From Microcoleaceae cyanobacterium (GTDB taxonomy: Bacteria; Cyanobacteriota; Cyanobacteriia; Cyanobacteriales; Microcoleaceae): a stretch of DNA of 19,211 bases. Where the stretch lies: contig JBOFUV010000114.1 in NCBI GenBank assembly GCA_051652765.1, forward strand, positions 1 to 19,211, written 5' to 3'. The position numbers and the translations under genes were made by a program. The notes under the pieces were generated by a model that saw only the letters and a list, made by a program, of their open reading frames with translations, had not been told where the DNA came from and searched no databases. The number at the start of each line of letters is the position of its first letter. Positions within the stretch are counted from its first letter, which is position 1. Below, piece by piece: positions 1 to 19,211 of this stretch.

Positions 1-392
1 GCAAATTTGGCGAATACTTCTGCCTCTGTCATATCTAAGGTTTGATTGGCAAATTTATAGTAACTAGGTTTCATGTCTATAAAGATTTGCTCCTTGAGTT
101 CAAACTCAATTTCATTTTGAAAAAGACCTGCTGGGACAAAATATTCATTGGTCGCTAACAACCTGTAGAAAATATGCGTACCGCATTCACCACAAAAAGC
201 TCTTTCAGCCCATTCTGAGGACTGATACACTTTGAGTTGATCAATGCCGTCTATCTGCACATCTGACTCGCAGGATACAACTAGTGCTGGTCCACCTCCC
301 CATCGCCGACACATTCCGCAATGACAAGCATCTATACTGGTTTTGTCTGGCGTTCTGACGGTTATTGCACTACAAAGACACTTACCATCCAT
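1..392 (-). CDS. GFA family (glutathione-dependent formaldehyde-activating / CENP-V) protein; 3' end runs off the window
   Basis: Not in the ORF track. Manual translation from ATG at 392: MDGKCLCSAITVRTPDKTSIDACHCGMCRRWGGGP...SSEWAERAFCGECGTHIFY..., giving the CxC, CHCxxC and FCxxCG Zn motifs of GFA. GAGGAG RBS 6 nt upstream. Confidence 0.9.
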   Translation of the reverse strand, partial: MDGKCLCSAITVRTPDKTSIDACHCGMCRRWGGGPALVVSCESDVQIDGIDQLKVYQSSEWAERAFCGECGTHIFYRLLATNEYFVPAGLFQNEIEFELKEQIFIDMKPSYYKFANQTLDMTEAEVFAKF

Positions 393-435
393 TCTAATCT
401 CCTCTATATTCCAGTGATTACTGCCTGATTTTGGC

Positions 436-522
436 ACATAACGGCTCAAATCAGCGGCGGCAAGCAACCGCGAACTCAACACCAGTGGCTTTTGACCGTC
501 CGCTGCATTTGAATTGTCATGC
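436..522 (-). repeat. attC-like recombination site 1 (87 bp)
   Basis: Minus strand: GCATGAC-aattc-AAAT(G)CAGCGG(A)CGG...CCGCCGCTGATTT-gagcc-GTTATGT. R''/R' cores, paired inner arms with two extrahelical bases. R'' carries an AAC>GAC change. Confidence 0.85.
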
Positions 523-530
523 GGCGATCG

Positions 531-1157
531 CTAACAACCAGCCTTCAAGACTTGTTCAGCCGTCAGTTTCAACTCTGCGAAGGTTGGAGAGACGATAGTT
601 TGACCGCCTCGAAATTGCTGGATTTCATACTCCCCATCTATTAATATACAGACAGAAAGGGTAGGTTGTTTGGGTTTTCCAATGTGTCGAGTACCCCCCA
701 ATCCTGCATAGTCTGCAATCCAATATTCGGGGATGCCTAAAGCCGCGTAGTCCTCAACCTTACGGGCATAATCGTTTTGCCAGTTGCTACTCACAACTTC
801 CGCCACAAATTTAATCGAACTACCTAGAGTCAAGATCGACTGGTCAGACCAAAGCAGTTCTTTGGTAAGTTCATCTCGATTGACAACGGCAACATCAGGT
901 CGAAATGCTGTCATCGCCTTGTTAGAAGGGCGCAATAGTCCTCGCTGAAGGACAAACCAAGGCAAGCCAGCGCCGTCGATCTGCACACAGACCTTTGTGG
1001 TGATGAAGGCTGCAACTTCTTCATGCAAGCCTGTTGGTTCCAAGTCGAATACCTCTCCATCAATTATTTCATAGCGGTTATCGCCACCATAACGAGCGAT
1101 AAATTCGTCAAAGCTGAGTGGCTTCTGTTGTACTGGTTGGTCGATTGCAAGGGTCAT
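531..1157 (-). CDS. Uma2 family (PD-(D/E)XK-like) putative endonuclease
   Basis: RYEIIDGEV, FRPDVAV, VAEVVS, DYARKVEDYAALGIPEYWIAD and SPTFAELKLTAEQVL are typical Uma2 motifs. Confidence 0.9.
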   Translation of the reverse strand: MTLAIDQPVQQKPLSFDEFIARYGGDNRYEIIDGEVFDLEPTGLHEEVAAFITTKVCVQIDGAGLPWFVLQRGLLRPSNKAMTAFRPDVAVVNRDELTKELLWSDQSILTLGSSIKFVAEVVSSNWQNDYARKVEDYAALGIPEYWIADYAGLGGTRHIGKPKQPTLSVCILIDGEYEIQQFRGGQTIVSPTFAELKLTAEQVLKAGC

Positions 1158-1221
1158 AGATCAACTTAGCCCAATCAATGCCTTTAGTTTACCAGATCGA
1201 ATATGTGACGGCTGAAGCGCC

Positions 1222-1584
1222 TTATTTATGAATCATTTTATTGCCTTCGGATTCTTCGCTGAAGTCCCAGAATGGTCTGATTTCGATATACCCTTTGGCT
1301 CTGGCACAGGGGGTATTAGCGATCAGTTGAACTACCTCATCAACATCCTTTGCTTCAATGATGGAAAAGCCAGCGAGGGGAGGTTTTGGCCTAGCAAATG
1401 ACTCATTCTCAGTAGTCAGATTACCGCTCCAATTCGTAACGGTTACCACCGTTGTTTGCACGGCGGCAAGGAAATCTCCTCGACTCTTCAGCATTTCATC
1501 TTGCTCAAGAACCTCAGACTGTTCTTGCTTGGTCATAGCTTTCCAATCGTCTTCACCCCCATACGCTAAACACAAAAACTTCAT
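1222..1584 (-). CDS. YciI/DGPF family protein
   Basis: MKFLCLAY start, LAGFSIIEAKDVDEV and PCARAKGYIEIRP motifs; AAAGGAG RBS. Confidence 0.8.
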   Translation of the reverse strand: MKFLCLAYGGEDDWKAMTKQEQSEVLEQDEMLKSRGDFLAAVQTTVVTVTNWSGNLTTENESFARPKPPLAGFSIIEAKDVDEVVQLIANTPCARAKGYIEIRPFWDFSEESEGNKMIHK

Positions 1585-1642
1585 TTTGTTGCTCCTTTAG
1601 GATGCATTGTATCAGTGCGAAGTTTGGCACTTACCCTTTGCC

Positions 1643-1730
1643 GCATAACGTTCCTGCTGAGCGGCTGCAGACAAACTTTGCAACTCAACCGACCCTATTG
1701 GAGCATTCCGGTGCAGTGCGGTTGTTAGAC
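1643..1730 (-). repeat. attC-like recombination site 2 (88 bp)
   Basis: Minus strand: GTCTAAC-aaccgcactgcaccgg...gcagccgctcagcaggaac-GTTATGC. Length and core spacing match sites 1 and 3; the arms are more divergent. Confidence 0.8.
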
Positions 1731-1792
1731 ATTGCTAAACTCCTACTAATATTAACCGACTACATCGACAGGTTCACCGCTTCTACCTTGAT

Positions 1793-2167
1793 TTAGCGAT
1801 TTAAGACATCATTTCGATGAGTGATAGAACCTACAATCTGCACTACTTCGTCAATTAAAGCTTGGGGAACTTCCATTTCAACTAAGGTGGCAACTAAATC
1901 CTCAGCGATCGCATCAAAATGGCTATCGGTTAAACCCATCTCAGTCACTAATTCTTGATGCGCTTCTCTCATGGTACGACCATTCCAGTGCTGGACACCA
2001 CCGAAAGCGTAAGTCATAAAGGCTTTTTGATGTTGCTTCTGTTGCTGCATATCTGTATGAGCGAAGAAGTGTTGAACCCGCTCATCTGCCAAGACCTTTT
2101 CATAAAACTTTTCTACAGCTAGATCAACGGCTGCTGCACCACCAAGTTTGTCATACAGTGCGCTCAT
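1793..2167 (-). CDS. glbN: Group I truncated hemoglobin (cyanoglobin, GlbN type)
   Basis: LYDKLGG..AVDLAVEKFY, HQKAFMTYAFGG, MREAH and HFDAIAEDL motifs. 124 aa with His46, His70 and His117 at the Synechocystis GlbN positions. Confidence 0.92.
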   Translation of the reverse strand: MSALYDKLGGAAAVDLAVEKFYEKVLADERVQHFFAHTDMQQQKQHQKAFMTYAFGGVQHWNGRTMREAHQELVTEMGLTDSHFDAIAEDLVATLVEMEVPQALIDEVVQIVGSITHRNDVLNR

Positions 2168-2315
2168 TGAAAATCACTCCACAATTACATTGACTTTAAA
2201 TTTGACACGAGGCAGATGGGAGAATCTAAAGTGTCCAATTATCTAAAAGATTGGATCATGGACAAATGAGCAATTCATCTACTTTGATGGCTCACTTCGT
2301 TGGAGCGAGGGCGAT

Positions 2316-2402
2316 GTCTAACGGCTCAAATCAGCGGCGGCAGACAACCTCGAACTCAGCACCAGCAGCTTTCGACCGTCCGCTGCATTTGAATTGTTAT
2401 GC
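2316..2402 (-). repeat. attC-like recombination site 3 (87 bp)
   Basis: Minus strand: GCATAAC-aattc-aaatgcagcggacgg...ccgccgctgattt-gagcc-GTTAGAC. The inner 73 nt differ from site 1 at 7 positions by manual count. Confidence 0.9.
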
Positions 2403-2422
2403 CGCAACTTCTAGAGTCTTTA

Positions 2423-2767
2423 TTACTCTTCGTCTCCTTCAGTATCAGCTTCTTCAAATCCCAGCCAGAAGAGCAACACGTCCTCAACTTCTACCATTTG
2501 TTCAGGGGTTAGACTGCCCAACTTGCGTAAAAGCTTTGCATGAGGAATTGTGACAATGTTTTGCACATCAAAAGTTCCCTCTCGAAGAAACTTAACTTTG
2601 ACGCGCACTTCAAATCTTGAGCCGCGTGGGCTTGTTGTATGTGGAATTAGACTCACTAAAGCGCGGTCTTGATTAAGAACAGGAATACTAACTACTAAAC
2701 AAGGTCTGACTTTTGCTACATAACCCAGATCAACTAACCAAACTTCACCACGGTCAGGATTACTCAT
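2423..2767 (-). CDS. Type II toxin, PemK/MazF family endoribonuclease
   Basis: RGEVWLVDLG..KVRPCLVVS, LIPHTT, VQNIVTI and LRKLGSL motifs. Start placed at ATG 2767 (MSNPDRG), overlapping the end of the upstream gene. Confidence 0.88.
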   Translation of the reverse strand: MSNPDRGEVWLVDLGYVAKVRPCLVVSIPVLNQDRALVSLIPHTTSPRGSRFEVRVKVKFLREGTFDVQNIVTIPHAKLLRKLGSLTPEQMVEVEDVLLFWLGFEEADTEGDEE

Positions 2768-2951
2768 ACAGGGCTTCTTGCTCATCTAATTCTAGAAAAA
2801 GCCCCTCAGCATTCAGAGCTAAATCTTCATCAGACAAGGGTGGAAAATCTAAGTAAATTGTCCGTTTCAGAATCTCTAATACCAAATCTAGCCGCTCTGA
2901 GTCTGTCAAGCGGTCAAAGGTATTCAAAAGTTCTTGCACTAAAGCAGTCAT
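2760..2951 (-). CDS. Putative antitoxin (small acidic protein) paired with the MazF-like toxin
   Basis: 63 aa (MTALVQELL...LELDEQEALYE) with a very acidic C-terminus, overlapping the toxin start by 8 nt. The ORF-track TTG start at 2996 falls inside the attC-like site, so ATG 2951 is preferred. Confidence 0.72.
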   Translation of the reverse strand: MTALVQELLNTFDRLTDSERLDLVLEILKRTIYLDFPPLSDEDLALNAEGLFLELDEQEALYE

Positions 2952-2987
2952 AGCTGGTTCCCTATATCTGTTGATAGGATAACACAG

Positions 2988-3053
2988 GCTTAACAAGGAT
3001 CTCAGCCATCGCTAATAGCAGTGAGGTACGTTCGTATCAGTCAGGTGTTAAGC
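2988..3053 (-). repeat. Short divergent attC-like site (66 bp)
   Basis: Perfectly complementary cores GCTTAAC...GTTAAGC. R' GTTAAGCC matches the toxin-antitoxin cassette's R'' (GTTATGCC at 2396-2403) at 7/8. The inner arms pair poorly. Confidence 0.55.
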
Positions 3054-3270
3054 ACAAGAAGAGTATGAACACGGCACTCTGCATCAAGGCTACGGACTTC
3101 CCTTTAAAACTCGGTACTACCTCAGCAACTCGCGCCTGTAACGTTTCGCTTAGCACTGAAAAGGTCAATTGCTAGCACCTGAAATGTTGTGCGCCTACCC
3201 ACTATGCAGAACACGCCCTGTTTGAAGTCAATAAACCCCAAGTTATCTGCGGTGGTAGTCTGTGGGCTAC

Positions 3271-3341
3271 CAGTGGCTGCAAGAACCATTGATATCTCCA
3301 CCAGTTGCTCTAGGCAGTCCGCTGCAACCGAATTGTTATGC
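3271..3341 (-). repeat. attC-like site 4, truncated (R' end missing)
   Basis: Minus strand: GCATAAC-aattc-ggttgcagcggactgc...gcagccactg, then unrelated sequence. The GNAT stop TAA lies inside GCATAAC. Confidence 0.75.
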
Positions 3342-3815
3342 ATCCGGTTTATGCAGTGATTTTAGGTAAACGATCTTATCAACCCCAGCAGCATAGAAAT
3401 CTCTAATTCTCGCTTCCTCTGTGTAACCGCTCTTGAGGTAAAACGTTCGGACGTATTCAAAGTCTTCAGTACCAGAAGTTTCGACCAGCAGCACACGTTC
3501 GCCGCGATTTGCCAGCATTTGCTCAACGTATTCGAGTAGCATCTTACCGCGTCCTTGCCGCTGGTAGTCAGGGTGAACAGCAATTAAATACAGATTCCAA
3601 GTCCCTTCAGTCATGCGTTCCGGTGCAACATATGCAACACTTACCAGACCGTTATCATCGTCAGTGAGCCAGAAGTCACGACTATTACCGTTGCTATCAA
3701 AATGCTGAGTGAGCAGTTGCAAGAGTTCCTTTATCTCGTTCGGCTCGAATGGCACAGATGCCTCGGCTACAGCGATCAGTGCCGAAATATCATCAGGTGT
3801 TGCAGGTCGAATCAT
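3336..3815 (-). CDS. GNAT family N-acetyltransferase
   Basis: MIRPATPDD start, IAVHPDYQRQGRGKMLL acetyl-CoA motif A, RTFYLKSGY. Start moved to ATG 3815 because the longer start lies in the operator region. Confidence 0.9.
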   Translation of the reverse strand: MIRPATPDDISALIAVAEASVPFEPNEIKELLQLLTQHFDSNGNSRDFWLTDDDNGLVSVAYVAPERMTEGTWNLYLIAVHPDYQRQGRGKMLLEYVEQMLANRGERVLLVETSGTEDFEYVRTFYLKSGYTEEARIRDFYAAGVDKIVYLKSLHKPDA

Positions 3816-3862
3816 AGCGAACTCCGTATGGGTGTAAATCCGTTCAGTCGTTGGCGGCAAAA

Positions 3863-3906
3863 TTACAACAGTTGTTATAACTTTAAGCGGCATAACAACT
3901 GTTATG
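3863..3906. promoter_or_regulatory. Two palindromic putative TetR operators in the divergent GNAT/TetR promoter region
   Basis: TTACAACA-GT-TGTTATAA (3863-3880) and perfect CATAACA-AC-TGTTATG (3891-3906); the two are inverted copies of one motif. Confidence 0.7.
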
Positions 3907-3955
3907 ATAAACCATCAAGATAATTGTTTCATCTTGCTGTAACCCAAGGAGAGTT

Positions 3956-4564
3956 ATGAGTTTTGACGATTCCTCTTCGAGGAGGCTACGCCAACGCCGG
4001 ATTGAAGTCGCTAAAGCCGCATGGCAGGTGATTGTTCGTGAAGGATTGGATCGCACTAGTATGCGGGCGATCGCTCAAGAGCTTGGTTCTTCGACTGGGG
4101 TTGTCACCCACTACTTTCGAGACAAAGAAGCACTCATTTTGTTTGCCTTGGAACAAGTTTTTGAAAATATTGTAGAGGATATGAAAGCCTGTGCCGATCA
4201 ATGGCAAGGAACTGAGAGACTAGAGAAAATGATTTTTTTGGCGCTCCCGATGGAATCGATTGATAGAGATGATTGGAAGGTTTGGGTGGCATTTTTGGGT
4301 TATTCGATCGGGCGTGAACACTTAGTTCAGGAACACCGAAAACGCTATGACTCTTTACGTCAGGTTATTTGTCAAGAGTTATCTGACTTACAAGCGGTTA
4401 AGCTGATTCGAGGCGATCTTGATTTAACCCTTGAAGCCAATGCGCTCATCGCGTTAGTGGATGGCATTGGCACTGGAGTTGTCATCTGTTCTGAGCAGTT
4501 CTCGGTGGATCAACAAAAATACCTCGTGCGGCGACACATCAATTCCTTACAATCGTCATTTTGA
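3956..4564 (+). CDS. TetR/AcrR family regulator (BetI-like C-terminal domain)
   Basis: HTH: GLDRTSMRAIAQELGSSTGVVTHYFRDKEAL; C-terminal LIALVDGI; AAGGAGAG RBS. Confidence 0.93.
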   Translation: MSFDDSSSRRLRQRRIEVAKAAWQVIVREGLDRTSMRAIAQELGSSTGVVTHYFRDKEALILFALEQVFENIVEDMKACADQWQGTERLEKMIFLALPMESIDRDDWKVWVAFLGYSIGREHLVQEHRKRYDSLRQVICQELSDLQAVKLIRGDLDLTLEANALIALVDGIGTGVVICSEQFSVDQQKYLVRRHINSLQSSF

Positions 4565-4613
4565 ATAGCGATGAGTCCGTTTTCAATCGCTGCCAACTCG
4601 ACCAATCGAGGCT

Positions 4614-4717
4614 GCATAACGTTGCCCATCACCCGCCGCAGATAACCTTGAACTCCCAACCAATCATCTCTCGGCGATCGGTGTTGGGGTAGCTGGCTGA
4701 CTCGTTATCCGTCATGC
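4614..4717 (-). repeat. attC-like site 5 (R' intact, R'' side degenerate)
   Basis: Minus-strand 3' end ...ctgcggcgggtgatgggcaac-GTTATGC; the opposite arm is imperfect. R'' candidates are GGATAAC (4710-4704) or GCATGAC (4717-4711), the latter overlapping the upstream gene's TGA. Confidence 0.65.
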
Positions 4718-5320
4718 CAAACCATAACTCTTCACGGATTCCAACGAAATATCTGGCAGGTTATGGAGCATGTCATCCCATGTATGCTGTGATTGCAATG
4801 CCTCTACAACAATTTGAAGTGGTTCAGAAAGAATTGCTGGAAAATCTGCCTCTTCGGGAAACTGGATCTTATACGCTAGCTGCTCTTGAGGTGGAGTGAA
4901 CTGAGCATTGACTCCTGTTTTGTTGCCTCTTGCATCAATTCGATACCATCCAACTTCGGGCAAATGAATTGCGTTGAACCCGTGCAAACTATACGGCGCG
5001 CCCTTGTCATCAATACTCAACCGCTGATAACAAAATCCTGCTGGAATCTGGTTTGCCCGTAGCAGTGCTGCTAGCAGATGACTCTTAGCAAAGCAATAAC
5101 CTGTCCTGTGTTGAAGCACATCTGATGCTCGGCAGGTCACAGGATTCATCTGATAGTCATAACTGTGACAAATTTCATCTCGCACCCATTCAAAACATGC
5201 TTTTGAGAACGCTATTGGTGTCTCACACCCTGACGCAATTTGCTCAGCACATTCCATAATATTAGAATGCTGCCAGTTGATGATTTCACTCGCCTTCAAA
5301 TACTCTTCCATATCAATCAA
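4712..5320 (-). CDS. Transglutaminase-like family protein
   Basis: Cys-His-Asp triad context: GYCFAKSHLLAALLRA, LHGFNA, GWYRIDARGN. Confidence 0.88.
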   Translation of the reverse strand: MIDMEEYLKASEIINWQHSNIMECAEQIASGCETPIAFSKACFEWVRDEICHSYDYQMNPVTCRASDVLQHRTGYCFAKSHLLAALLRANQIPAGFCYQRLSIDDKGAPYSLHGFNAIHLPEVGWYRIDARGNKTGVNAQFTPPQEQLAYKIQFPEEADFPAILSEPLQIVVEALQSQHTWDDMLHNLPDISLESVKSYGLA

Positions 5321-5374
5321 TACGAATGCTGAAGCTTCAATTTCAAGAAGATTGCCAGCAGTTTAAAGCCACTG

Positions 5375-5815
5375 CTATAACTGTAGTACGTAGTGGTAGA
5401 AATCTTTATCCTTAGCGTATCCGAGTGATTCATAAAGAGATTGAGCAGCCATATTAGAAGCTTGAGTTGCTAAAATAATTCGGACTGCTCCTGTTCGCCG
5501 TGCAAAATCCTCTGCTGCACTAATTAGTGACTTTGCAACTCCCTTCTTTCGATATGATTCCTCCACGAATAAATCGTTCAGAATCCAGATAGGTTTCATC
5601 GACACTGAGGAAAAACTGGGGTAAAGCTGCGTAAAACCGACCATGTGGCTATTATCGCGGATCACAAATATTATCGAATCTCCTCTCTGAAAACGCTCTT
5701 GAAGAAATTTTCTGGCCGCTTCAAGATCTGAAGGTGATTTGTAGAAAACGCGATATTGGTCAAACAATTTCGACACTTCCTCAAGGTGTTCAAAATGCGC
5801 TTGAAAAACTTCCAC
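5375..5815 (-). CDS. GNAT family N-acetyltransferase
   Basis: LFDQYRVFY, GFTQLYPSFSS, WILNDLFVEESYRKKGVA and AQSLYESLGY motifs. GTG start with GGAGG RBS. Confidence 0.9.
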   Translation of the reverse strand: MEVFQAHFEHLEEVSKLFDQYRVFYKSPSDLEAARKFLQERFQRGDSIIFVIRDNSHMVGFTQLYPSFSSVSMKPIWILNDLFVEESYRKKGVAKSLISAAEDFARRTGAVRIILATQASNMAAQSLYESLGYAKDKDFYHYVLQL

Positions 5816-5837
5816 CTGTTATCCTCCAATTAAAGGG

Positions 5838-6371
5838 CTAGGGAACCTGAATGGGTTGGACAAACTGACGATTGGCTCGCACAAAACATTGACTTGGCCC
5901 ATCGTTGCCAAGGGTTCGCTTTACAAACATCCAAGGGTTTTGCTGAGTATCATAAACAATCCCAAATCCAGCGGGGCCAAGATTGATCTCAAAGCGCTGA
6001 CCGGGCTGGAGCGTGCCAACAATTGACCAGGTTTCAATTTCTAAAGGAATGGTGCTGCTTGCACCGACTAGTTCTTCATAGCTCCAATTGCTCATCCGAC
6101 ACTCGACCTCTCGGGCCGGAGTCACAACGGCTTGCCAGGTGACTTGGGGCGATCGCTGATAATCACCATTGTCTAGGGGTTTGGGTTCAGAAAGTTTGGG
6201 TTCAGAAGGTTGGGCCTCTACAGGTTGAGGCAGGACAACCGAGCCTTGGGTCAAGCTTTGAATAGACGGGGGGGAGTGCAAGCATCCCATTACCCCCAAT
6301 CCCATTACACCAATCCCTAGCACTCTTTTCAGACGTTTGCTAATTGGAATCATACTTTGCATATTACTCAT
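5838..6371 (-). CDS. Hypothetical protein, possible lipoprotein
   Basis: Basic N-terminus (KRLKR), hydrophobic stretch, lipobox-like GVMGC, then a Pro-rich linker with a duplicated SEPK(L/P). No family recognised. Confidence 0.6.
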   Translation of the reverse strand: MSNMQSMIPISKRLKRVLGIGVMGLGVMGCLHSPPSIQSLTQGSVVLPQPVEAQPSEPKLSEPKPLDNGDYQRSPQVTWQAVVTPAREVECRMSNWSYEELVGASSTIPLEIETWSIVGTLQPGQRFEINLGPAGFGIVYDTQQNPWMFVKRTLGNDGPSQCFVRANRQFVQPIQVP

Positions 6372-6389
6372 GCATATTGCTTATGCAGA

Positions 6390-7730
6390 TTAGTCAATCA
6401 TTGCTCCCGTGAGGCTGAATGGCCGCACTTCGGTTACTTTTACTTTCACCGATTGACCCTGCAATTCCGCCAGATTTCCAGAGAAAAAGGTTAAGCGATT
6501 TCCACGGGTTCGTCCCATCACTTGAGTTGAATCTTTAGGATTCGATCCTTCGACCAGAACTTCTTCGATACGTCCCTGATACCGTTGCGATCGCTCTGCT
6601 GCTTTCACCCCCACCAAATGATTCAGCCGCTGTAACCGATCTGCTTTAACGTCTTCCGACAATTGATTGTCCCACTGAGCCGCAGGAGTATTGGGACGGG
6701 GAGAATAAGCCGCCGTATTCAACAGGTCAAACCCGATCTCTTCCACCAAGTTCAACGTGTTTTGAAACTGTTCCTCCGTTTCTCCGGGAAACCCAACGAT
6801 CGCATCAGCACTAATTGAAGCGTCAGGTATGGATTGACGAATGGTCTGAATAATCCGGCGATACTTCTCATGGGTGTAGCCCCGAGACATTGCTTTGAGG
6901 ATTTGATTGTCCCCGGATTGAAAGGGAATGTGAAAATATTCGCAGACCTTAGGCAGCTCAGCACAGGCTTGAATCAGGCGTTCAGTAAAGTATCGAGGAT
7001 GGCTGGTGGCAAAGCGAATGCGTTCAATGCCAGGAACATCATGAATAAAATAAAGCAGATCTGTGAGGGTGTGTTGATGGCGACCTGTTGGGGTTGAACC
7101 GGGTAAATCCCGACCGTAGGCATCAATATTTTGGCCCAGTAGGGTGATTTCTGCATAACCCTGACGACCCAGTGCTTCGATTTCCGCCCGAATGGCCTCT
7201 GGGGTGCGAGATTGTTCAACCCCTCGCACATTCGGCACAACACAATAGGTACATCGCTCATTACAGCCATAGATTACATTCACCCAAGCCGTAATCTGAC
7301 TATCTCGTCGGGGCTTAGTGATATCTTCAACGATTTGAATCGGTTCAGTTGCTACGACTTGGCCGCCCCTAAAAACCTGTTCGAGTAATTCTTGCAGCCG
7401 ATTGGCATGTTGTGGCCCCATGACTAAATCGAGTTCGGGCACTCGGCGCAACAACGCCTCCCCTTCTTGTTGAGCAACGCAACCTGCGACAACCAGGGTT
7501 AAACCTGGATCTTGATGCTTGCGTTTAGCCTGCCTCCCCAAGTAAGAATAGACTTTTTGCTCGGCATTGTCGCGAATAGTACAGGTATTGTAAAGAATTA
7601 AATCAGCATTGTTGGGGTCTTCAGCCCAAAGAAAGCCCATTTCCTCTAAAATTCCGGCCATGCGCTCAGAGTCTGCCTTGTTCATCTGGCAGCCAAAGGT
7701 TGTAATGTGGTAGCGACGGGAAGTAGTCAT
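6390..7730 (-). CDS. miaB: tRNA-2-methylthio-N6-dimethylallyladenosine synthase MiaB
   Basis: [24 protein letters not shown], radical [11 protein letters not shown] motif, [15 protein letters not shown] and a C-terminal TRAM domain. Confidence 0.97.
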
Positions 7731-13403: not shown

Positions 13404-14210
13404 ATGATGATTGATTTAACTGGAAAAGTAGTTTTAGTTACTGGGGGCAGTCAGGGCATTGGCGCAGCGACAGTCAGAACCTTGCATCACATCGGGGCAA
13501 AGGTGATTTTGCACTATGGGAAAAACCAGAAGAAAGCCGCCGCCATAGCACAGGAACTAGGTCAGACCTCCTGCCATCTTGTCCAAGCAGACTTAACCCA
13601 GGAAAATACAGCAATTGAGCTATGGAAAAACGCAGTTTCGTGGCAGGGGAAAATCGATGTGATTGTCAATAATGCTGGGATGATCTCTCCTACCAGCCTA
13701 GAAGATGACTGGAAAACGTGGCATCACACCTGGCAACAAACTCTACAGGTGAATTTAATCGCAGTTGCTGATTTGTGTCGAGCAGCAATTCAGCACTTTC
13801 AAGATCAGAATATTCAACAACAGAAGATGCAACAACAGAATATTCAATCACAACAGGGCGGAATTATTATTAACATTGCCAGTCGTGCAGCCTTTCGGGG
13901 GGATCAGCCAGATTTCATGCATTATGCGGCCTCAAAAGGCGGGGTGATTTCCCTAACTCGCAGTATTGCTAGAGGATTCGCTAAAGACAATATTTTGGCC
14001 TACGCGATCGCCCCCGGTTTTGTCCGCACAGAAAGGATTGAAGCCTTGATCCAGACTTATGGAGAAGCTGTTCTGACCCAGGACATACCCTTAGGGAAAA
14101 TAGCTGCACCGGAAGATGTAGCAAATGTCGTCGCATTTCTAGCCTCTGGTTTAGCGCCCCACGCAACGGGAACAACCATTGATATCAACGGCGCATCCTA
14201 CGTTCGTTAA
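13404..14210 (+). CDS. SDR family oxidoreductase
   Basis: TGGSQGIG, VNNAG, catalytic YAASK and IAPGFVRT motifs. Confidence 0.93.
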   Translation: MMIDLTGKVVLVTGGSQGIGAATVRTLHHIGAKVILHYGKNQKKAAAIAQELGQTSCHLVQADLTQENTAIELWKNAVSWQGKIDVIVNNAGMISPTSLEDDWKTWHHTWQQTLQVNLIAVADLCRAAIQHFQDQNIQQQKMQQQNIQSQQGGIIINIASRAAFRGDQPDFMHYAASKGGVISLTRSIARGFAKDNILAYAIAPGFVRTERIEALIQTYGEAVLTQDIPLGKIAAPEDVANVVAFLASGLAPHATGTTIDINGASYVR

Positions 14211-14313: not shown

Positions 14314-14733
14314 TCAACTTTGACAGCGATCGCACACTCCTTGAACAATGACTTCATAGCTCTCTGCCCGAAGTCCCGGACGAAGATTAGTCAAATTCAG
14401 GTGCTGGAAGGTGTCCCAGGCAATATCTTCAATTGCACCACAGCATTTGCAGCGAAAATGATGATGACAACTCATGTTGGCATCGTAGCGAGAGACTCCT
14501 TCTTCTAGTAAGACCTCTCGAACCAAACCTACGTCTCGCAGGGCTTGTAGCGTAGTATAAATTGTGGCCTGGGAAGAGACGGGATGCTCTTGGTTGAGCA
14601 CCGTCAAAATTTGTTCCGCCGTTGGGTGTTCAATACAGGAGCGCAAATAGGAATAGACCGCAAATCGCTGAGGGGTAACTCGCAACCCCTTTGACTTTAA
14701 AACCTGAACGATTTTATCTGCCTGTTGATGCAT
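14314..14733 (-). CDS. perR: Fur family peroxide-responsive regulator PerR
   Basis: GLRVTPQR, HPTAE, SQATIY, HHHF, CKCC and CDRC motifs. Divergent from a type II peroxiredoxin, as in Synechocystis slr1738/sll1621. Confidence 0.85.
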   Translation of the reverse strand: MHQQADKIVQVLKSKGLRVTPQRFAVYSYLRSCIEHPTAEQILTVLNQEHPVSSQATIYTTLQALRDVGLVREVLLEEGVSRYDANMSCHHHFRCKCCGAIEDIAWDTFQHLNLTNLRPGLRAESYEVIVQGVCDRCQS

Positions 14734-14861
14734 GGCTATAGATACAACTCTCGATACCTTAAATAATTTTTGACCTATACTATAGCACTTTTACCAGAAG
14801 ATTTCTCAAGACAGAAAAGGCTGTATTTTTGAGTATTTATAACTATTGATAAATTCTTAAG

Positions 14862-14876
14862 TCAGAATTATTCTGA
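14862..14876. promoter_or_regulatory. Putative PerR box (7-1-7 palindrome)
   Basis: TCAGAAT-T-ATTCTGA, similar to the TTATAATnATTATAA PerR consensus, 60 nt upstream of the peroxiredoxin ATG. Confidence 0.7.
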
Positions 14877-14936
14877 GTTGCATCAGTGAAAGCTGAATCT
14901 CAGTAAACTCCTAGATGATTCATTCAAGAGGTTAGT

Positions 14937-15503
14937 ATGGTTGAGAATGTTCCTAATGTTGTGTTCAAGACCCGTGTTCGAGATGAGTCCATTTCTGGGC
15001 CTAATCCTTACCGTTGGCAGGATGTAACCACTCAGGAGATTTTTGGCGGCAAGCGCGTTGTTTTGTTTGCACTACCTGGTGCATTTACACCAACTTGTTC
15101 CTCAACTCACCTCCCTCGCTACGAAGAACTGTACGATGAATTCAAAGCTCAAGGAATTGAGGCAATCGTTTGTCTATCGGTTAATGATGCATTTGTCATG
15201 TTCCAGTGGGGCAAGCAGCAAGGGGCAAAGAATGTATTCTTGTTGCCGGATGGCAATGGTGAGTTCAGCCGCAAAATGGGCATGTTGGTTGAGAAGTCCA
15301 ATCTTGGCTTTGGAATGCGGTCTTGGCGCTATTCCATGGTTGTGAATGATGGCAAGATTGAGAAAATGTTTATTGAAGATGAGTTCGGTGACAATTGCCC
15401 AATAGACCCCTTCGCCGTTTCTGATGCAGATACAGTTCTGGCTTACCTCAAGGGTACCCAACCTCCGGTAGAAGCTGCACCTCGTAAAGAGTTTGTTGGC
15501 TAA
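14937..15503 (+). CDS. Type II peroxiredoxin (Prx5-like)
   Basis: [33 protein letters not shown] and [11 protein letters not shown] motifs. Confidence 0.95.
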
Positions 15504-15910: not shown

Positions 15911-17716
15911 CTACGAGAAGATGTTGACCAGGCCCGCATCGAAGACATTCCCAAAGTCTTCAAAGGGTGCACTAGCAACAATCTCAGATGAGCCAGAACC
16001 ATTGAAGTTGCCAATCGCTACGGCTGTACCAAATCGATCACCAGCTTCGGCAATTCCTGCAACTCCAGAGAATCCCTGTTGGAAAAGTCGCACATTGGAG
16101 GAGGACGCACCACTTGCAGATCCAAAAGTTAAATGCACGGTTCCCACGTCATTGGTTGCGCCATTGTTAGAACCGGGAGCACCAATAATAATGTCTGCAA
16201 AGTTATCAGTATTGATCTGTTGAGCATCAATGCTAGCCCCGAACTGATCACCTGCCTGAGATAAACCCCCGAGCAGGTTACTCTTAGTAAGAATTTGGGG
16301 GTTATTGCTGGGGAAATTTTGGCCCTGGCGACCGAAGTAAACGTACCCTTGGCCAGTGGAGCTGTTGCTTCCTGGTGCACCAATAATCACATCATCCACC
16401 AGATCGCCATTAACATCAGCAACGTCGAGGGATTCTCCAAACCGATCCCCAGTCTTATCACTCACCCCGGCAAAGGACTGACCAATGAGGGTGTTGTTAG
16501 TTGTAGTGAGTCCGGTGGTGGAACCATAAAGCACATGAAACGCGCCTGAGAATGAGGCATTAGTATCAGGTGCACCGGGCGCACCAATCACCAAGTCGTC
16601 AAATCCATCCCTGTTGATATCCCCAGCAGCTAGAGCTTGGGCAAATTGAGTCGCGGGTGCTTCATTGCTGCCGAGAACACCAGGTGTGTCACGATGAAAT
16701 ACCTGCAGTCCACGGGTGGTAATTCCAGAAGACGAACCATAGTTAATTTGAACTGCCCCATCATTGTTTAGAGCGAGCGGATCTCCTGTCGCGACATCAT
16801 CTTTACCATCGCCATTGAAATCTCCAGTTGTCAGAGACGCACCAAAAATTACTGATCCAGGGAAGGAAGAGGACTTGACAATGGGCTGTTGTGCTCCCGT
16901 TAACCCACTATTTTTAACACCAAGCTTTACTGTTGCGCCAGCGCCACTTGTCCCTAAAACCAGATCCTCCACCCCATCTCCATTGATGTCACCCACGGCA
17001 AAGGTTTGACCATTGTTGACCAGATTGCTGGAGTTAAAGGTTTGGATGCCAGATTGACTTAAGCCACTACTCGAACCAAAGGAAACATGGGTCAATCCTT
17101 CATTTGGAGATCCGACTACCAGATCATCTCGACCATCGTCATTAAAATCTCCAGTGACTAGTCGGCGAGCGCTGAAGAAGCCACCGCCAAGCAGATCATT
17201 GGACTCTGGTGCATCTTGTACAAAGGCGCTCTGGATGAAAACAGAGTTTGCAGCTTCAGGGCCAGCAACGCCACTGACCACAACAGTGATTTCCCCTTTG
17301 TCGTTGTCCCCCGCACCCCGCAAGGTAATCGGTTGATTCACGAATCCCAGGCGTTGACTAGAGCCACTTTCAGTACTGATCACCTCCCCCGTTTGCACAT
17401 TGAGAAAGAAATTCAGGTCTTTTTTGCCTGAAAGCGGGTTGATATCAACCCGGGTATCAGGCCCTGTATCCTCTTCAATAATTTCAATTTTGAGCGGAAC
17501 AATTCCACCTAATTGACTGGAAGTATTGGTAAACGTCCAGGCTGTTCCTGGATTCAGGTCATCGTCTCCCTCAAACTTTTTACCTGGAAATACTTTTCCA
17601 TCAATCGTGACCGTTGAGCGAAAATCAGCTTCCCCAGTAAAGCTTCCGTCAAGATTATCTACTGTCTTCATCCGGGTAATCGATACGGTAACAGGCTCAT
17701 CAATAAACTGTGTCAT
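15911..17716 (-). CDS. FG-GAP (integrin-alpha beta-propeller) repeat protein with an N-terminal C2-like beta domain
   Basis: About seven repeats such as GDFNDDGRDDLVVGSP, GDINRDGFDDLVIGAP and DVNGDLVDDVIIGAP. Start moved to ATG 17716 (MTQFIDEP), which has an AGGAGA RBS. Confidence 0.85.
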   Translation of the reverse strand: MTQFIDEPVTVSITRMKTVDNLDGSFTGEADFRSTVTIDGKVFPGKKFEGDDDLNPGTAWTFTNTSSQLGGIVPLKIEIIEEDTGPDTRVDINPLSGKKDLNFFLNVQTGEVISTESGSSQRLGFVNQPITLRGAGDNDKGEITVVVSGVAGPEAANSVFIQSAFVQDAPESNDLLGGGFFSARRLVTGDFNDDGRDDLVVGSPNEGLTHVSFGSSSGLSQSGIQTFNSSNLVNNGQTFAVGDINGDGVEDLVLGTSGAGATVKLGVKNSGLTGAQQPIVKSSSFPGSVIFGASLTTGDFNGDGKDDVATGDPLALNNDGAVQINYGSSSGITTRGLQVFHRDTPGVLGSNEAPATQFAQALAAGDINRDGFDDLVIGAPGAPDTNASFSGAFHVLYGSTTGLTTTNNTLIGQSFAGVSDKTGDRFGESLDVADVNGDLVDDVIIGAPGSNSSTGQGYVYFGRQGQNFPSNNPQILTKSNLLGGLSQAGDQFGASIDAQQINTDNFADIIIGAPGSNNGATNDVGTVHLTFGSASGASSSNVRLFQQGFSGVAGIAEAGDRFGTAVAIGNFNGSGSSEIVASAPFEDFGNVFDAGLVNIFS

Positions 17717-18058
17717 GGGAGTATTCTCCTGGAGTGTTAGGTAGTGATTGAGTTGGGATTGCATCCCGCTCACATTTCCAACACTAATGGCAAATTTTGT
17801 AATTGTCGTTACATAAAATCTCATCACTTTAGAGATATCGAATTACATATAACTCTCACTGGCATTTATGAGAAAGCTCTTAATTTCCTTGAAAACGAGT
17901 CAAGATCGTGAAATCAACTCTTTTCTTGAAGGCGTTAATTGCTCTTTCAAGGCATTCTGGAATGAATAGACTTTTTCGTAAACTGACAAACCTCATATAA
18001 TCTCAGGTGAGGTTCATTAAGCTGCATTTCCTCCTGTTTCCACCCCTACTGACCCAGC

Positions 18059-19211
18059 ATGAACTTTGAAACAGCTCTCCAAATTGTCAGTGATGCAATG
18101 TTTGTGCAGTTCGGCAGGCGACTGCATGATGTGGAGATGCTTCTGTTCAAGGGAGCTTGGGACGGACAAACCTACGAAGTCATTGCTGAAATATCTGGTT
18201 ATTCTCCTAGCTACCTCACCCGAATTGCAGGGCCAAAGTTCTGGCAAAATCTGAGTCAAGCATTAGCAGAAAAGGTTGGTAAAACTAGCTTTCGAGCTGT
18301 TCTTGAGCAACAACATATTCGGTCAGTCAACACGCCATTGCTTAATGAACAGCCATTAAGTTTGTCAGGTTCATCCTCTGTCTCGTCCGCGTCTAAAACA
18401 CAAGAACCTCCCTGCATCGATTGGGGAGAAGCGCCTGATGTCACTACATTTTACGGACGACAGGCTGAATTGGATACCTTACAACAATGGGTAGTGAATG
18501 TTCGCTGTCGATTGAGCGCAGTCCTGGGCATGGGAGGTATTGGGAAAACTTCCCTAACCGCAAAGTTTGTGGAAACTCTGGTAGAGCAGTCTGATTGCCC
18601 CTTTAACCATATCATTTGGAGAACCCTCCGCAATGCCCCTTCAGTACAAGAACTTCTAACAGATTTAGTCCCATTTTTATCCGACCAACGGGACACCGAC
18701 ATAACCCGTAAACGTTTACTGCACTGGCTACAGCAGTCTCAGTGTTTGTTGATCCTCGACAACCTGGAGACAATTCTCCAAGGAGGGGATCGGACTGGTT
18801 ATTTCCGTTCAGGCTATGAAGACTATGGGGAACTATTGCAGCTTGTCGCTGAAACCCGCCATCAAAGCTGTGTAGTGCTGACCAGCCGAGAAAAACCTGC
18901 TGTTGTCGGGGTATTAGAAGGAATTGATAATCCGGTGCGATCACTGCGACTCAGCGGATCGCCAGAAGCAGCCCTGTCTTTGATCAATACCAAAGGATTA
19001 CTGGGGACAGAGGAGGAAAAGTATGAATTGGGCGATCGCTACAACAATAGTCCTCTAGCATTAAAGATTGTTGCGACTTCAATTCAAAGTCTATTTGACG
19101 GGAAAATTTCGTTATTTTTAGCAGAGGACACATTGGTCTTCAATGGCCTTCAACGCTTGCTAAATCAACAGTTTGAACGGCTATCTGAGCTAGAGAAAAC
19201 GGTCATGTATT
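18059..19211 (+). CDS. HTH-NB-ARC (STAND NTPase) protein; 3' end runs off the window
   Basis: Not in the ORF track. MNFETALQIV...FKGAWDGQTYEVIAEISGYSPSYL...GPKFWQNLSQALAEKVGKTSF is a cyanobacterial N-terminal HTH. It is followed by DWGEAPDV..FYGR, Walker A GMGGIGKT, Walker B CLLILDNLE, VLTSRE and NSPLALKI. Confidence 0.92.
   Translation, partial: MNFETALQIVSDAMFVQFGRRLHDVEMLLFKGAWDGQTYEVIAEISGYSPSYLTRIAGPKFWQNLSQALAEKVGKTSFRAVLEQQHIRSVNTPLLNEQPLSLSGSSSVSSASKTQEPPCIDWGEAPDVTTFYGRQAELDTLQQWVVNVRCRLSAVLGMGGIGKTSLTAKFVETLVEQSDCPFNHIIWRTLRNAPSVQELLTDLVPFLSDQRDTDITRKRLLHWLQQSQCLLILDNLETILQGGDRTGYFRSGYEDYGELLQLVAETRHQSCVVLTSREKPAVVGVLEGIDNPVRSLRLSGSPEAALSLINTKGLLGTEEEKYELGDRYNNSPLALKIVATSIQSLFDGKISLFLAEDTLVFNGLQRLLNQQFERLSELEKTVMY

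Follow-up and report, generated by a model that had tools for sequence, protein, structure and literature searches.

How does an integron-type cassette array in a cyanobacterium obtain its cassettes when no integrase gene lies where one would be expected? This question was raised by contig JBOFUV010000114.1 (C114) of a Microcoleaceae cyanobacterium. The window analyzed here is the entire contig (19,211 nt), which belongs to a draft genome of 5.04 Mb in 158 contigs (GCA_051652765.1, hereafter G000); G001 is a genome of the same genus, and G002 is a sister species, also of that genus. The octamer GCGATCGC, which we take to be HIP1 (highly iterated palindrome 1), a marker of cyanobacteria, occurred 3,231 times in G000. 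The original prediction, made from the sequence alone, described the array as a CALIN (a cluster of attC sites without an integron-integrase), served in trans by an integrase elsewhere. The main feature of the genome, which lies beyond that first view, is a dispersed set of 22 attI platforms bearing 5' intI stubs. We consider it probable that the window's array, which has no docking site of its own, belongs to a system in which this platform spread to 22 copies by copying and insertion and was loaded in trans by an IntI missing from the assembly.

The attC sites of the window and of the genome

The three intact attC sites that had been predicted were confirmed with exact lengths and positions, all on the minus strand: site 1 at 436-522 (87 nt), site 2 at 1643-1730 (88 nt), and site 3 at 2316-2402 (87 nt). 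The internal identity of about 90% between sites 1 and 3 was reproduced (66 of 73 internal positions, 76 of 87 overall). A covariance model was built on 47 G000 sites, with sites 1-3 among them and the damaged sites 4 and 5 outside the training set; sites 1, 2, and 3 scored 78, 59, and 92 bits. Because sites 1-3 were in the training set, the independent evidence consists of the covariation, the matches in other genomes, and the cassette-end test.

In the bottom-strand fold of the 47 aligned sites, 90.7% of the cells were paired and 11 of 16 pairs carried compensatory changes; none of 500 shuffles reached as high, and slid controls gave 26-55%. The AAC and GTT cores were at least 90% conserved, with outer positions looser than the textbook consensus, and the unpaired T and C columns (extrahelical, bottom strand) were nearly invariant. 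The reversed genome yielded a single match (E 0.33). The predicted RYYYAAC/GTTRRRY cores thus held overall, with one mismatch in the R'' of site 1 (GCATGAC). When each cassette start was compared with its own R'', 4.5 of 6 positions matched (n = 57) against 2.9 in shuffles (shuffle maximum 3.5). The three window cassettes scored reached 6, 6, and 5 of 6; the R'' of site 1 matched its own cassette start past the core at 6/6, as did the R'' of site 2 against the start of the globin cassette. As far as sequence comparison goes, this complementarity is an IntI signature.

Genome-wide, 84 attC sites were found in 37 clusters, which strongly supported the predicted dispersed cassette system. A platform stood at 17 clusters, 10 clusters reached a contig end upstream, and 10 were headless, the window's among them; 17 clusters were single sites, and some clusters join across contig ends. 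One could suppose that the palindromes are repeats resembling repetitive extragenic palindromes (REP-like) and unrelated to integrons, as G000 contains REP-like repeats and many clusters are single sites. This supposition is hardly credible, being refuted by the covariation with extrahelical bases, the cassette-end complementarity, the strand agreement with attI, and the IntI stubs. REP or REPIN repeats would be scattered with neither gene-length spacing nor a strand relation to cassettes, which is not the pattern here.

Within the window, the array runs on the minus strand according to its extrahelical bases, as do most of its genes, and it extends past the left end of the contig. As predicted, neither attI nor intI was found in the window on the upstream (right) side. 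Three further short or damaged sites had been proposed, and the model recovered two damaged ones, both on the minus strand. Site 4 at 3253-3341 (32 bits, hidden Markov model positions 2-71) keeps R''-L'' and has lost L'/R', and site 5 at 4614-4698 (40 bits, positions 21-86), the most upstream, has lost the R''/L'' side. Weaker remnants at 3134-3192 and 3890-3915 were unmatched by the model. With five attC sites, at least two of them within 4 kb, and no intact intI nearby, the array is a CALIN. Its gene content was not invariant across relatives, since no array lies beside miaB in G001 or G002.

Dispersed attI platforms with intI stubs

The search of G000 revealed 22 attI cores, 17 of them with a 5' intI stub, and 18 stubs in all. 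Each platform comprised attI, some five repeat units separating it from intI, and, in 17 cases, a 5' intI stub; it was conserved up to AATAACTAG/TT (the G/TT crossover) and variable past that point. All 16 platforms that could be tested, having attC within 6 kb downstream, faced their arrays on the right strand, as in a classical integron. The same layout was observed upstream of intact intI genes in other cyanobacteria. Twelve of the 18 stubs shared one deletion junction at codon 21, followed by a common tail and a 22-bp tandem repeat, and six had end points of their own. Platform pairs were 70-97% alike (median 86%, 126 pairs) and fell into two subfamilies, both also present in G002, in a tree that was otherwise poorly resolved. 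In a few cases, whole platforms lay inside arrays, mostly without a clean GTT junction. A promoter scan of one platform gave nothing convincingly above shuffles, and the cassette promoter Pc was not located.

Two further observations concern the repeats. All cyanobacterial attI regions examined had 3-5 repeat units between attI and intI, compared with two direct repeats in attI1, and these units carried IntI-box-like ends around a variable, often palindromic middle. Arrays of the 22-bp tandem repeat, variable in length, were found behind 13 platforms and at C63, C101, C109, C134, and C145, and once in G002, where no platform accompanied them.

The platform nearest to the window's array is reached through contig C146. 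The left end of C114 (-) overlaps C146 (+) by a unique 139 nt, and on the joined contig the half attC behind the last cassette is followed by a pentapeptide-repeat gene, a glycosyltransferase gene, and then a stub platform (21-codon stub) opening an array of its own. This platform lies about 3.3-3.4 kb past site 1, downstream of the window's array, and so is not that array's head. In 12 of the 13 best relative loci examined (101 matching genomes), the GT4 glycosyltransferase gene adjoins the genes found on C30. The C146 platform marks an insertion: in G000, platform and cassettes stand between the glycosyltransferase and the C30 genes, a link that we infer. Synteny around C17, C64, C74, and C50 was too broken to yield empty sites, and the flanks of C50 were not adjacent in G001 or G002. 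A one-ended insertion with a clean attC/GWT distal end was considered and rejected, as none was found in the window's array, which ends in a half attC, or at C30.

Search for an integrase and probable action in trans

The IntI profile TIGR02249 detected nothing above its cut-off in G000, its weak matches being the 5' stubs. Seven Pfam integrase matches were rejected as IntI candidates; by reading of their sequences, they are other tyrosine recombinases. No 3' piece of intI was found in the G000 assembly, either with an intact IntI protein or with the 3' 620 nt of the G002 intI as the query. The shortest contig measures 1,614 nt, those below 1.6 kb being absent from the assembly, and a repeated cassette required between contig ends is missing, so the absence of intI is unproven.

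The cassettes themselves indicated that an integrase had been at work. One cassette, present at the attI of C146 and behind an attC of C132, was 98.7% alike in the two places, while the twelve platform copies with the shared junction were at most 94.8% alike. A gene-less 132-nt cassette gave 20 BLAST hits in arrays throughout G000, two of which are the same copy spanning an overlap, and it had no match in 250 other genomes. Together, these results imply that IntI worked after the stubs arose, and we infer that it acted in trans after the platforms had spread. The original prediction of service in trans was therefore supported in its first part, by cassette traffic between arrays, and no integrase elsewhere was found. 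Cassettes common to G000 and G002 were 89-93% alike, compared with 65-80% for housekeeping genes.

The gene-less cassette (for example C21:29907-30038, L235:5908-6039) is possibly a promoter or a selfish cassette; its promoter scan was not convincingly above shuffles. Several copies carry an element of the IS4/5 insertion sequence (IS) family at the same position. Two very large cassettes appeared defence-like: one on C50 (L233:1823-5818) with a 1,332-codon NTPase-TPR-CHAT frame, and one on C132 (L237:1919-4959) with a DNA methylase and a partner gene.

Occurrence in other genomes

The cassette system had been suggested to be lineage-specific. The attC family matched 35 of 40 genomes of the order, yet not same-genus G001; the 40 genomes were hand-picked, many for having stubs, and the fraction is no measure of prevalence. 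The system is dispersed, and lineage specificity was not supported for the attC family. Of 251 genomes of the order, 120 matched the IntI N-terminus, 37 matched the IntI-specific domain, and 23 had a full IntI above the cut-off. At E <= 1e-8, the first two counts were 93 and 35 (counted by hand), and the weak N-terminal matches may be other recombinases. When the best 24 candidates were scored, G000 had 17 IntI N-terminal matches and the next highest genome had 8. In the same genus, G002 showed 10 platform matches at places non-orthologous to those of G000, and a full-length intI with one stop, whose closest named relatives are cyanobacterial; G001 showed one short platform match and no attC.

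In addition, two closed or near-closed genomes showed the same pattern, so the dispersal is no assembly effect. G199 carried 52 attC sites across the chromosome and at least eight attI sites with platforms that differ from one another, and G032 carried 18 attC sites and three attI-like sites, with no IntI match. Twenty regions upstream of arrays in other genomes yielded seven further attI-like sites, against none in the reversed control. At 93% over 336-512 nt, the platforms of G119 matched platforms in G016 and G091, the three genomes belonging to different families. In G016 itself, at C1:4450000-4500000 (L036-L038), at least six intI copies or remnants stand in tandem within 50 kb, several of them followed by what appears to be the 3' end of prfA, a name given by sequence reading.

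These genomes bear on the idea that a single ordinary, complete integron went unassembled and that everything else consists of fragments scattered by rearrangement. The draft state of G000, with its short contigs missing and the C68 platform running off a contig end, would agree with it, and drafts are stated to inflate CALIN counts in the accessible part of PMC9024848. However, rearrangement splits one attI and cannot make 22, most platforms lie inside contigs, and the closed genomes share the pattern. We judge this idea very improbable; an unassembled intI in itself is compatible with dispersed platforms loaded in trans.

Probable origin and movement of the platforms

In the scenario that we favour, an ancestral platform would have lost most of its intI by deletion, and the deleted form would have spread to 12 places. 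Other platform copies would have lost intI independently, and the copies would have moved by more than one route, with later decay. IntI from a lost, unassembled, or incoming gene could then have kept moving cassettes between arrays. The upstream side of the first site in the window's array is cut, so that this array probably had its head deleted or came without one.

Several junctions were informative. The platforms of C45, C67, and C101 start precisely at an IS4/5-family element's inverted repeat (DUF4096, weak match), preceded by the same short target as free copies of the element, with the same inner junction and different outer flanks. C50 has the other IS end distally, with its tip absent on the near side. 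In G002, a GTT in intI codon 70 is where one platform meets an attC, as would be expected of an IntI reaction product. REP-like repeats lay near 4 of 14 far ends, compared with 3.9% of random windows that included coding DNA and thus formed an unmatched control. Spread driven by HIP1 was rejected, as the shared stub junction is no HIP1 site and only the C22 copy stops at one.

Complete integrons might instead have arrived separately at every place, each losing intI alone, with no non-autonomous unit involved. The six stubs with their own end points, the mutually different platforms of G199, and the occurrence of platforms across families would suit such a history, as would the commonness of intI pseudogenes (PMC2426708, in its accessible part). 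Twelve copies share both junction and tail, which independent loss would not repeat, unless gene conversion between copies produced the shared junction. Separate arrival throughout thus appears improbable.

For the window's array in particular, seeding with no platform at all was considered: IntI would have placed a cassette at a chromosomal GWT (attG) and later ones at attC. Such insertion has been shown experimentally in E. coli, according to the available part of 10.1101/2022.09.11.507474. The window has no attI, 10 of the 37 clusters are headless, many are single sites, and the upstream GNAT gene has a GTT at its 3' end. That GTT start, however, matches no R'' cleanly and is common to a GNAT homologue, the upstream side of the first site is broken, and the 22 platforms would be left unexplained. 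We regard attG seeding as unlikely, although it is a reasonable competitor for this array.

Several points weigh against spread of the platform by copying and insertion with loading in trans. No single moving mechanism has been shown, and the platforms have ragged far ends. Of 19 truncation points, only 2 stop at the GWT motif used by IntI, one of them at attC, and IntI cutting its own gene was rejected on this count as the general cause of truncation. The IS end is exact in only three copies, one of which runs off its contig before attI; a full transposase was not found in the search of G000, and no target duplication was established. The presence of both subfamilies in G002 means that some of the spread may reflect repeated acquisition from external sources. 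The assembly could have missed an intact, repeat-flanked intI of about 1 kb, the link from C146 to C30 rests on a missing bridge contig and synteny, and the attC model, being trained on G000, inflates the G000 count relative to other genomes.

A broader reading is that cyanobacteria carry a non-autonomous mobile attI unit of about 300 bp with a 5' intI stub. This unit would spread within and between genomes in the manner of MITEs (miniature inverted-repeat transposable elements) and seed small arrays, which together would make up a single distributed library of cassettes served in trans. We put this forward tentatively, with doubt slightly outweighing acceptance.

Cassettes and neighbouring genes of the window

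Two corrections apply to the first picture of the cassettes: YCII and Uma2 lie together in one, and the TetR gene is inverted in another. From the left end, all on the minus strand unless stated otherwise, the last cassette carries a GFA-family gene (3-407, PF04828) that ends on the joined contig C146 in the half attC (R''-L'' only). Between sites 1 and 2, a Uma2 gene (531-1157, PD-(D/E)XK-like, PF05685, PADLOC PDC-S03) shares its cassette with a YCII-family gene (1222-1584, PF03795). A truncated-haemoglobin cassette (1793-2167, PF01152) is followed upstream of site 3 by a toxin-antitoxin cassette. The latter comprises a PemK/MazF-family toxin gene (2423-2785, PF02452) and a small upstream gene (2760-2996), a putative antitoxin by its position alone, with no Pfam match and Atlas clusters labelled 'hypothetical'. 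The uncertain short attC-like hairpin (3134-3192, 59 nt) has R''/R'-like ends and a folding z of -1.7.

The GNAT acetyltransferase cassette (3336-3893, PF13508, PF00583) lies between damaged site 4 and a mini-site (3890-3915) in which R'' is directly followed by a GTT core. The mini-site is unique in the genome and one base shorter than the attI cores of related cyanobacteria; judged by its sequence, it is possibly a remnant of the delta-attI type. A TetR-family regulator gene (3956-4564, plus strand, PF00440, PF13977) is inverted in its own cassette. Upstream of damaged site 5, the transglutaminase-like gene (4712-5320, PF01841) is possibly a former cassette; a weak downstream attC (E 0.012) was found in 1 of 28 homologous loci. 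Stop codons had been predicted to overlap R'', and this was observed only in the GNAT cassette and, on the joined contig, in GFA; at sites 1-3, the stops lie 9, 63, and 21 nt upstream. On the plus strand at 3200-3290, a part-attC resemblance stands head to head with damaged site 4. Candidate sites at 2988-3053 and 1190-1225 were rejected for absence of a folding signal (z +0.5 and +0.9), and Rfam matched nothing in window positions 1-6500.

Cassette pieces from the window were found in four unrelated metagenomes, with loose ends clustering at attC edges. Pieces of the toxin-antitoxin cassette were 97-98% identical in runs X1, X3, and X4 and about 94% identical in X2. The globin cassette had the same start in 3 of 19 metagenome loci examined and stood behind another attC in two. 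The globin gene (L078-L094) occurs both as a cassette and with no attC, some loci having similar upstream sequence, which makes these loci helpful in asking how cassettes originate. Scanning metagenomes with the gene adjoining miaB detected no close strain (six runs with at most 0.06 of the words, no RNA holder among them) and thus gave no empty site for the window's own array.

Further along the window, a Fur-family regulator gene is divergent from a peroxiredoxin gene (14314-15503), likely a peroxide-stress pair, and 15-bp tandem repeats at 13791-13850 encode a glutamine-rich insert in a short-chain dehydrogenase. An FG-GAP repeat protein is encoded at 15911-17827, and a STAND/NB-ARC NTPase gene (18059-19210) is cut at the contig end.

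Relation to known systems and significance

The comparisons in this section draw on the accessible parts of the sources cited. The likeness to CALINs (PMC4889954, PMC9024848), in which at least two attC sites lie inside 4 kb with no intact intI close by, is clear; the difference is that 17 of the 37 G000 clusters retain attI. Cyanobacteria are among the phyla listed with integrons. Cury et al. (2016), searching with the IntI C-terminal profile, reported pseudogenes close to 15 of 279 CALINs (PMC4889954), and Neron et al. (2022) note that attI sites other than those of class 1 go undetected (PMC9024848). Because the search used a C-terminal profile and attI went undetected outside class 1, 5' stubs with attI would be missed.

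Sedentary chromosomal integrons, for example those of Xanthomonas (10.1101/2025.06.18.660453), share homogeneous attC sites, toxin-antitoxin and gene-less cassettes, frequent intI inactivation, and extra CALINs. The Xanthomonas platform is fixed at one conserved locus (ilvD), whereas G000 has 22 copies at places not common to G002. With no upstream intI or attI in the window and no single conserved platform locus, the array falls outside the class of complete sedentary chromosomal integrons. Insertion at attG and single attC sites lacking integron-integrases (SALINs; 10.1101/2022.09.11.507474) likewise place cassettes outside a platform and may explain headless clusters, including the window's; there, cassettes move and attI platforms do not.

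Class 1 integrons flanked by MITEs or integron mobilization units (PMC3575428) resemble the present case, in that a defective integron is moved by element ends and a transposase in trans. In G000, by contrast, a minority of copies have the platform fused to a single IS end, and paired ends with target duplication were not established. Cassettes of the delta-attI type (PMC12901181) terminate in a site derived from attI and remain capable of recombination; they are described for class 1 and 2 mobile integrons, whereas G000 has whole platforms in arrays. A phylum-specific attC model for Cyanobacteria exists (PMC8352920), and the accessible part of that source does not describe attI or platform copy number. 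Thus, CALINs, cyanobacterial attC, intI pseudogenes, attG insertion, and MITE-flanked integrons are all in print (PMC4889954, PMC8352920, 10.1101/2022.09.11.507474, PMC2426708, PMC3575428). No publication on multi-copy attI platforms in cyanobacteria was found in a search that covered subscription papers little, and such genomes may appear in the supplementary tables of PMC4889954, PMC9024848, and PMC8352920.

Taken alone, the window's array is an ordinary CALIN of a known kind; what is new is a platform amplified to 22 copies with no integrase. The integron platform is usually called immobile unless transposon-borne, and the origin of CALINs is an open question. G000 offers 22 attI copies that can be aligned, along with a consensus attI layout for cyanobacteria and testable junctions. 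If the platform itself spreads, cyanobacterial CALIN counts would hide active capture sites, and cassette gene flow (defence-like, toxin-antitoxin, and metabolic) would be distributed chromosome-wide. In that case, many of the 'CALINs' of cyanobacteria would be live docking sites missed by current tools.

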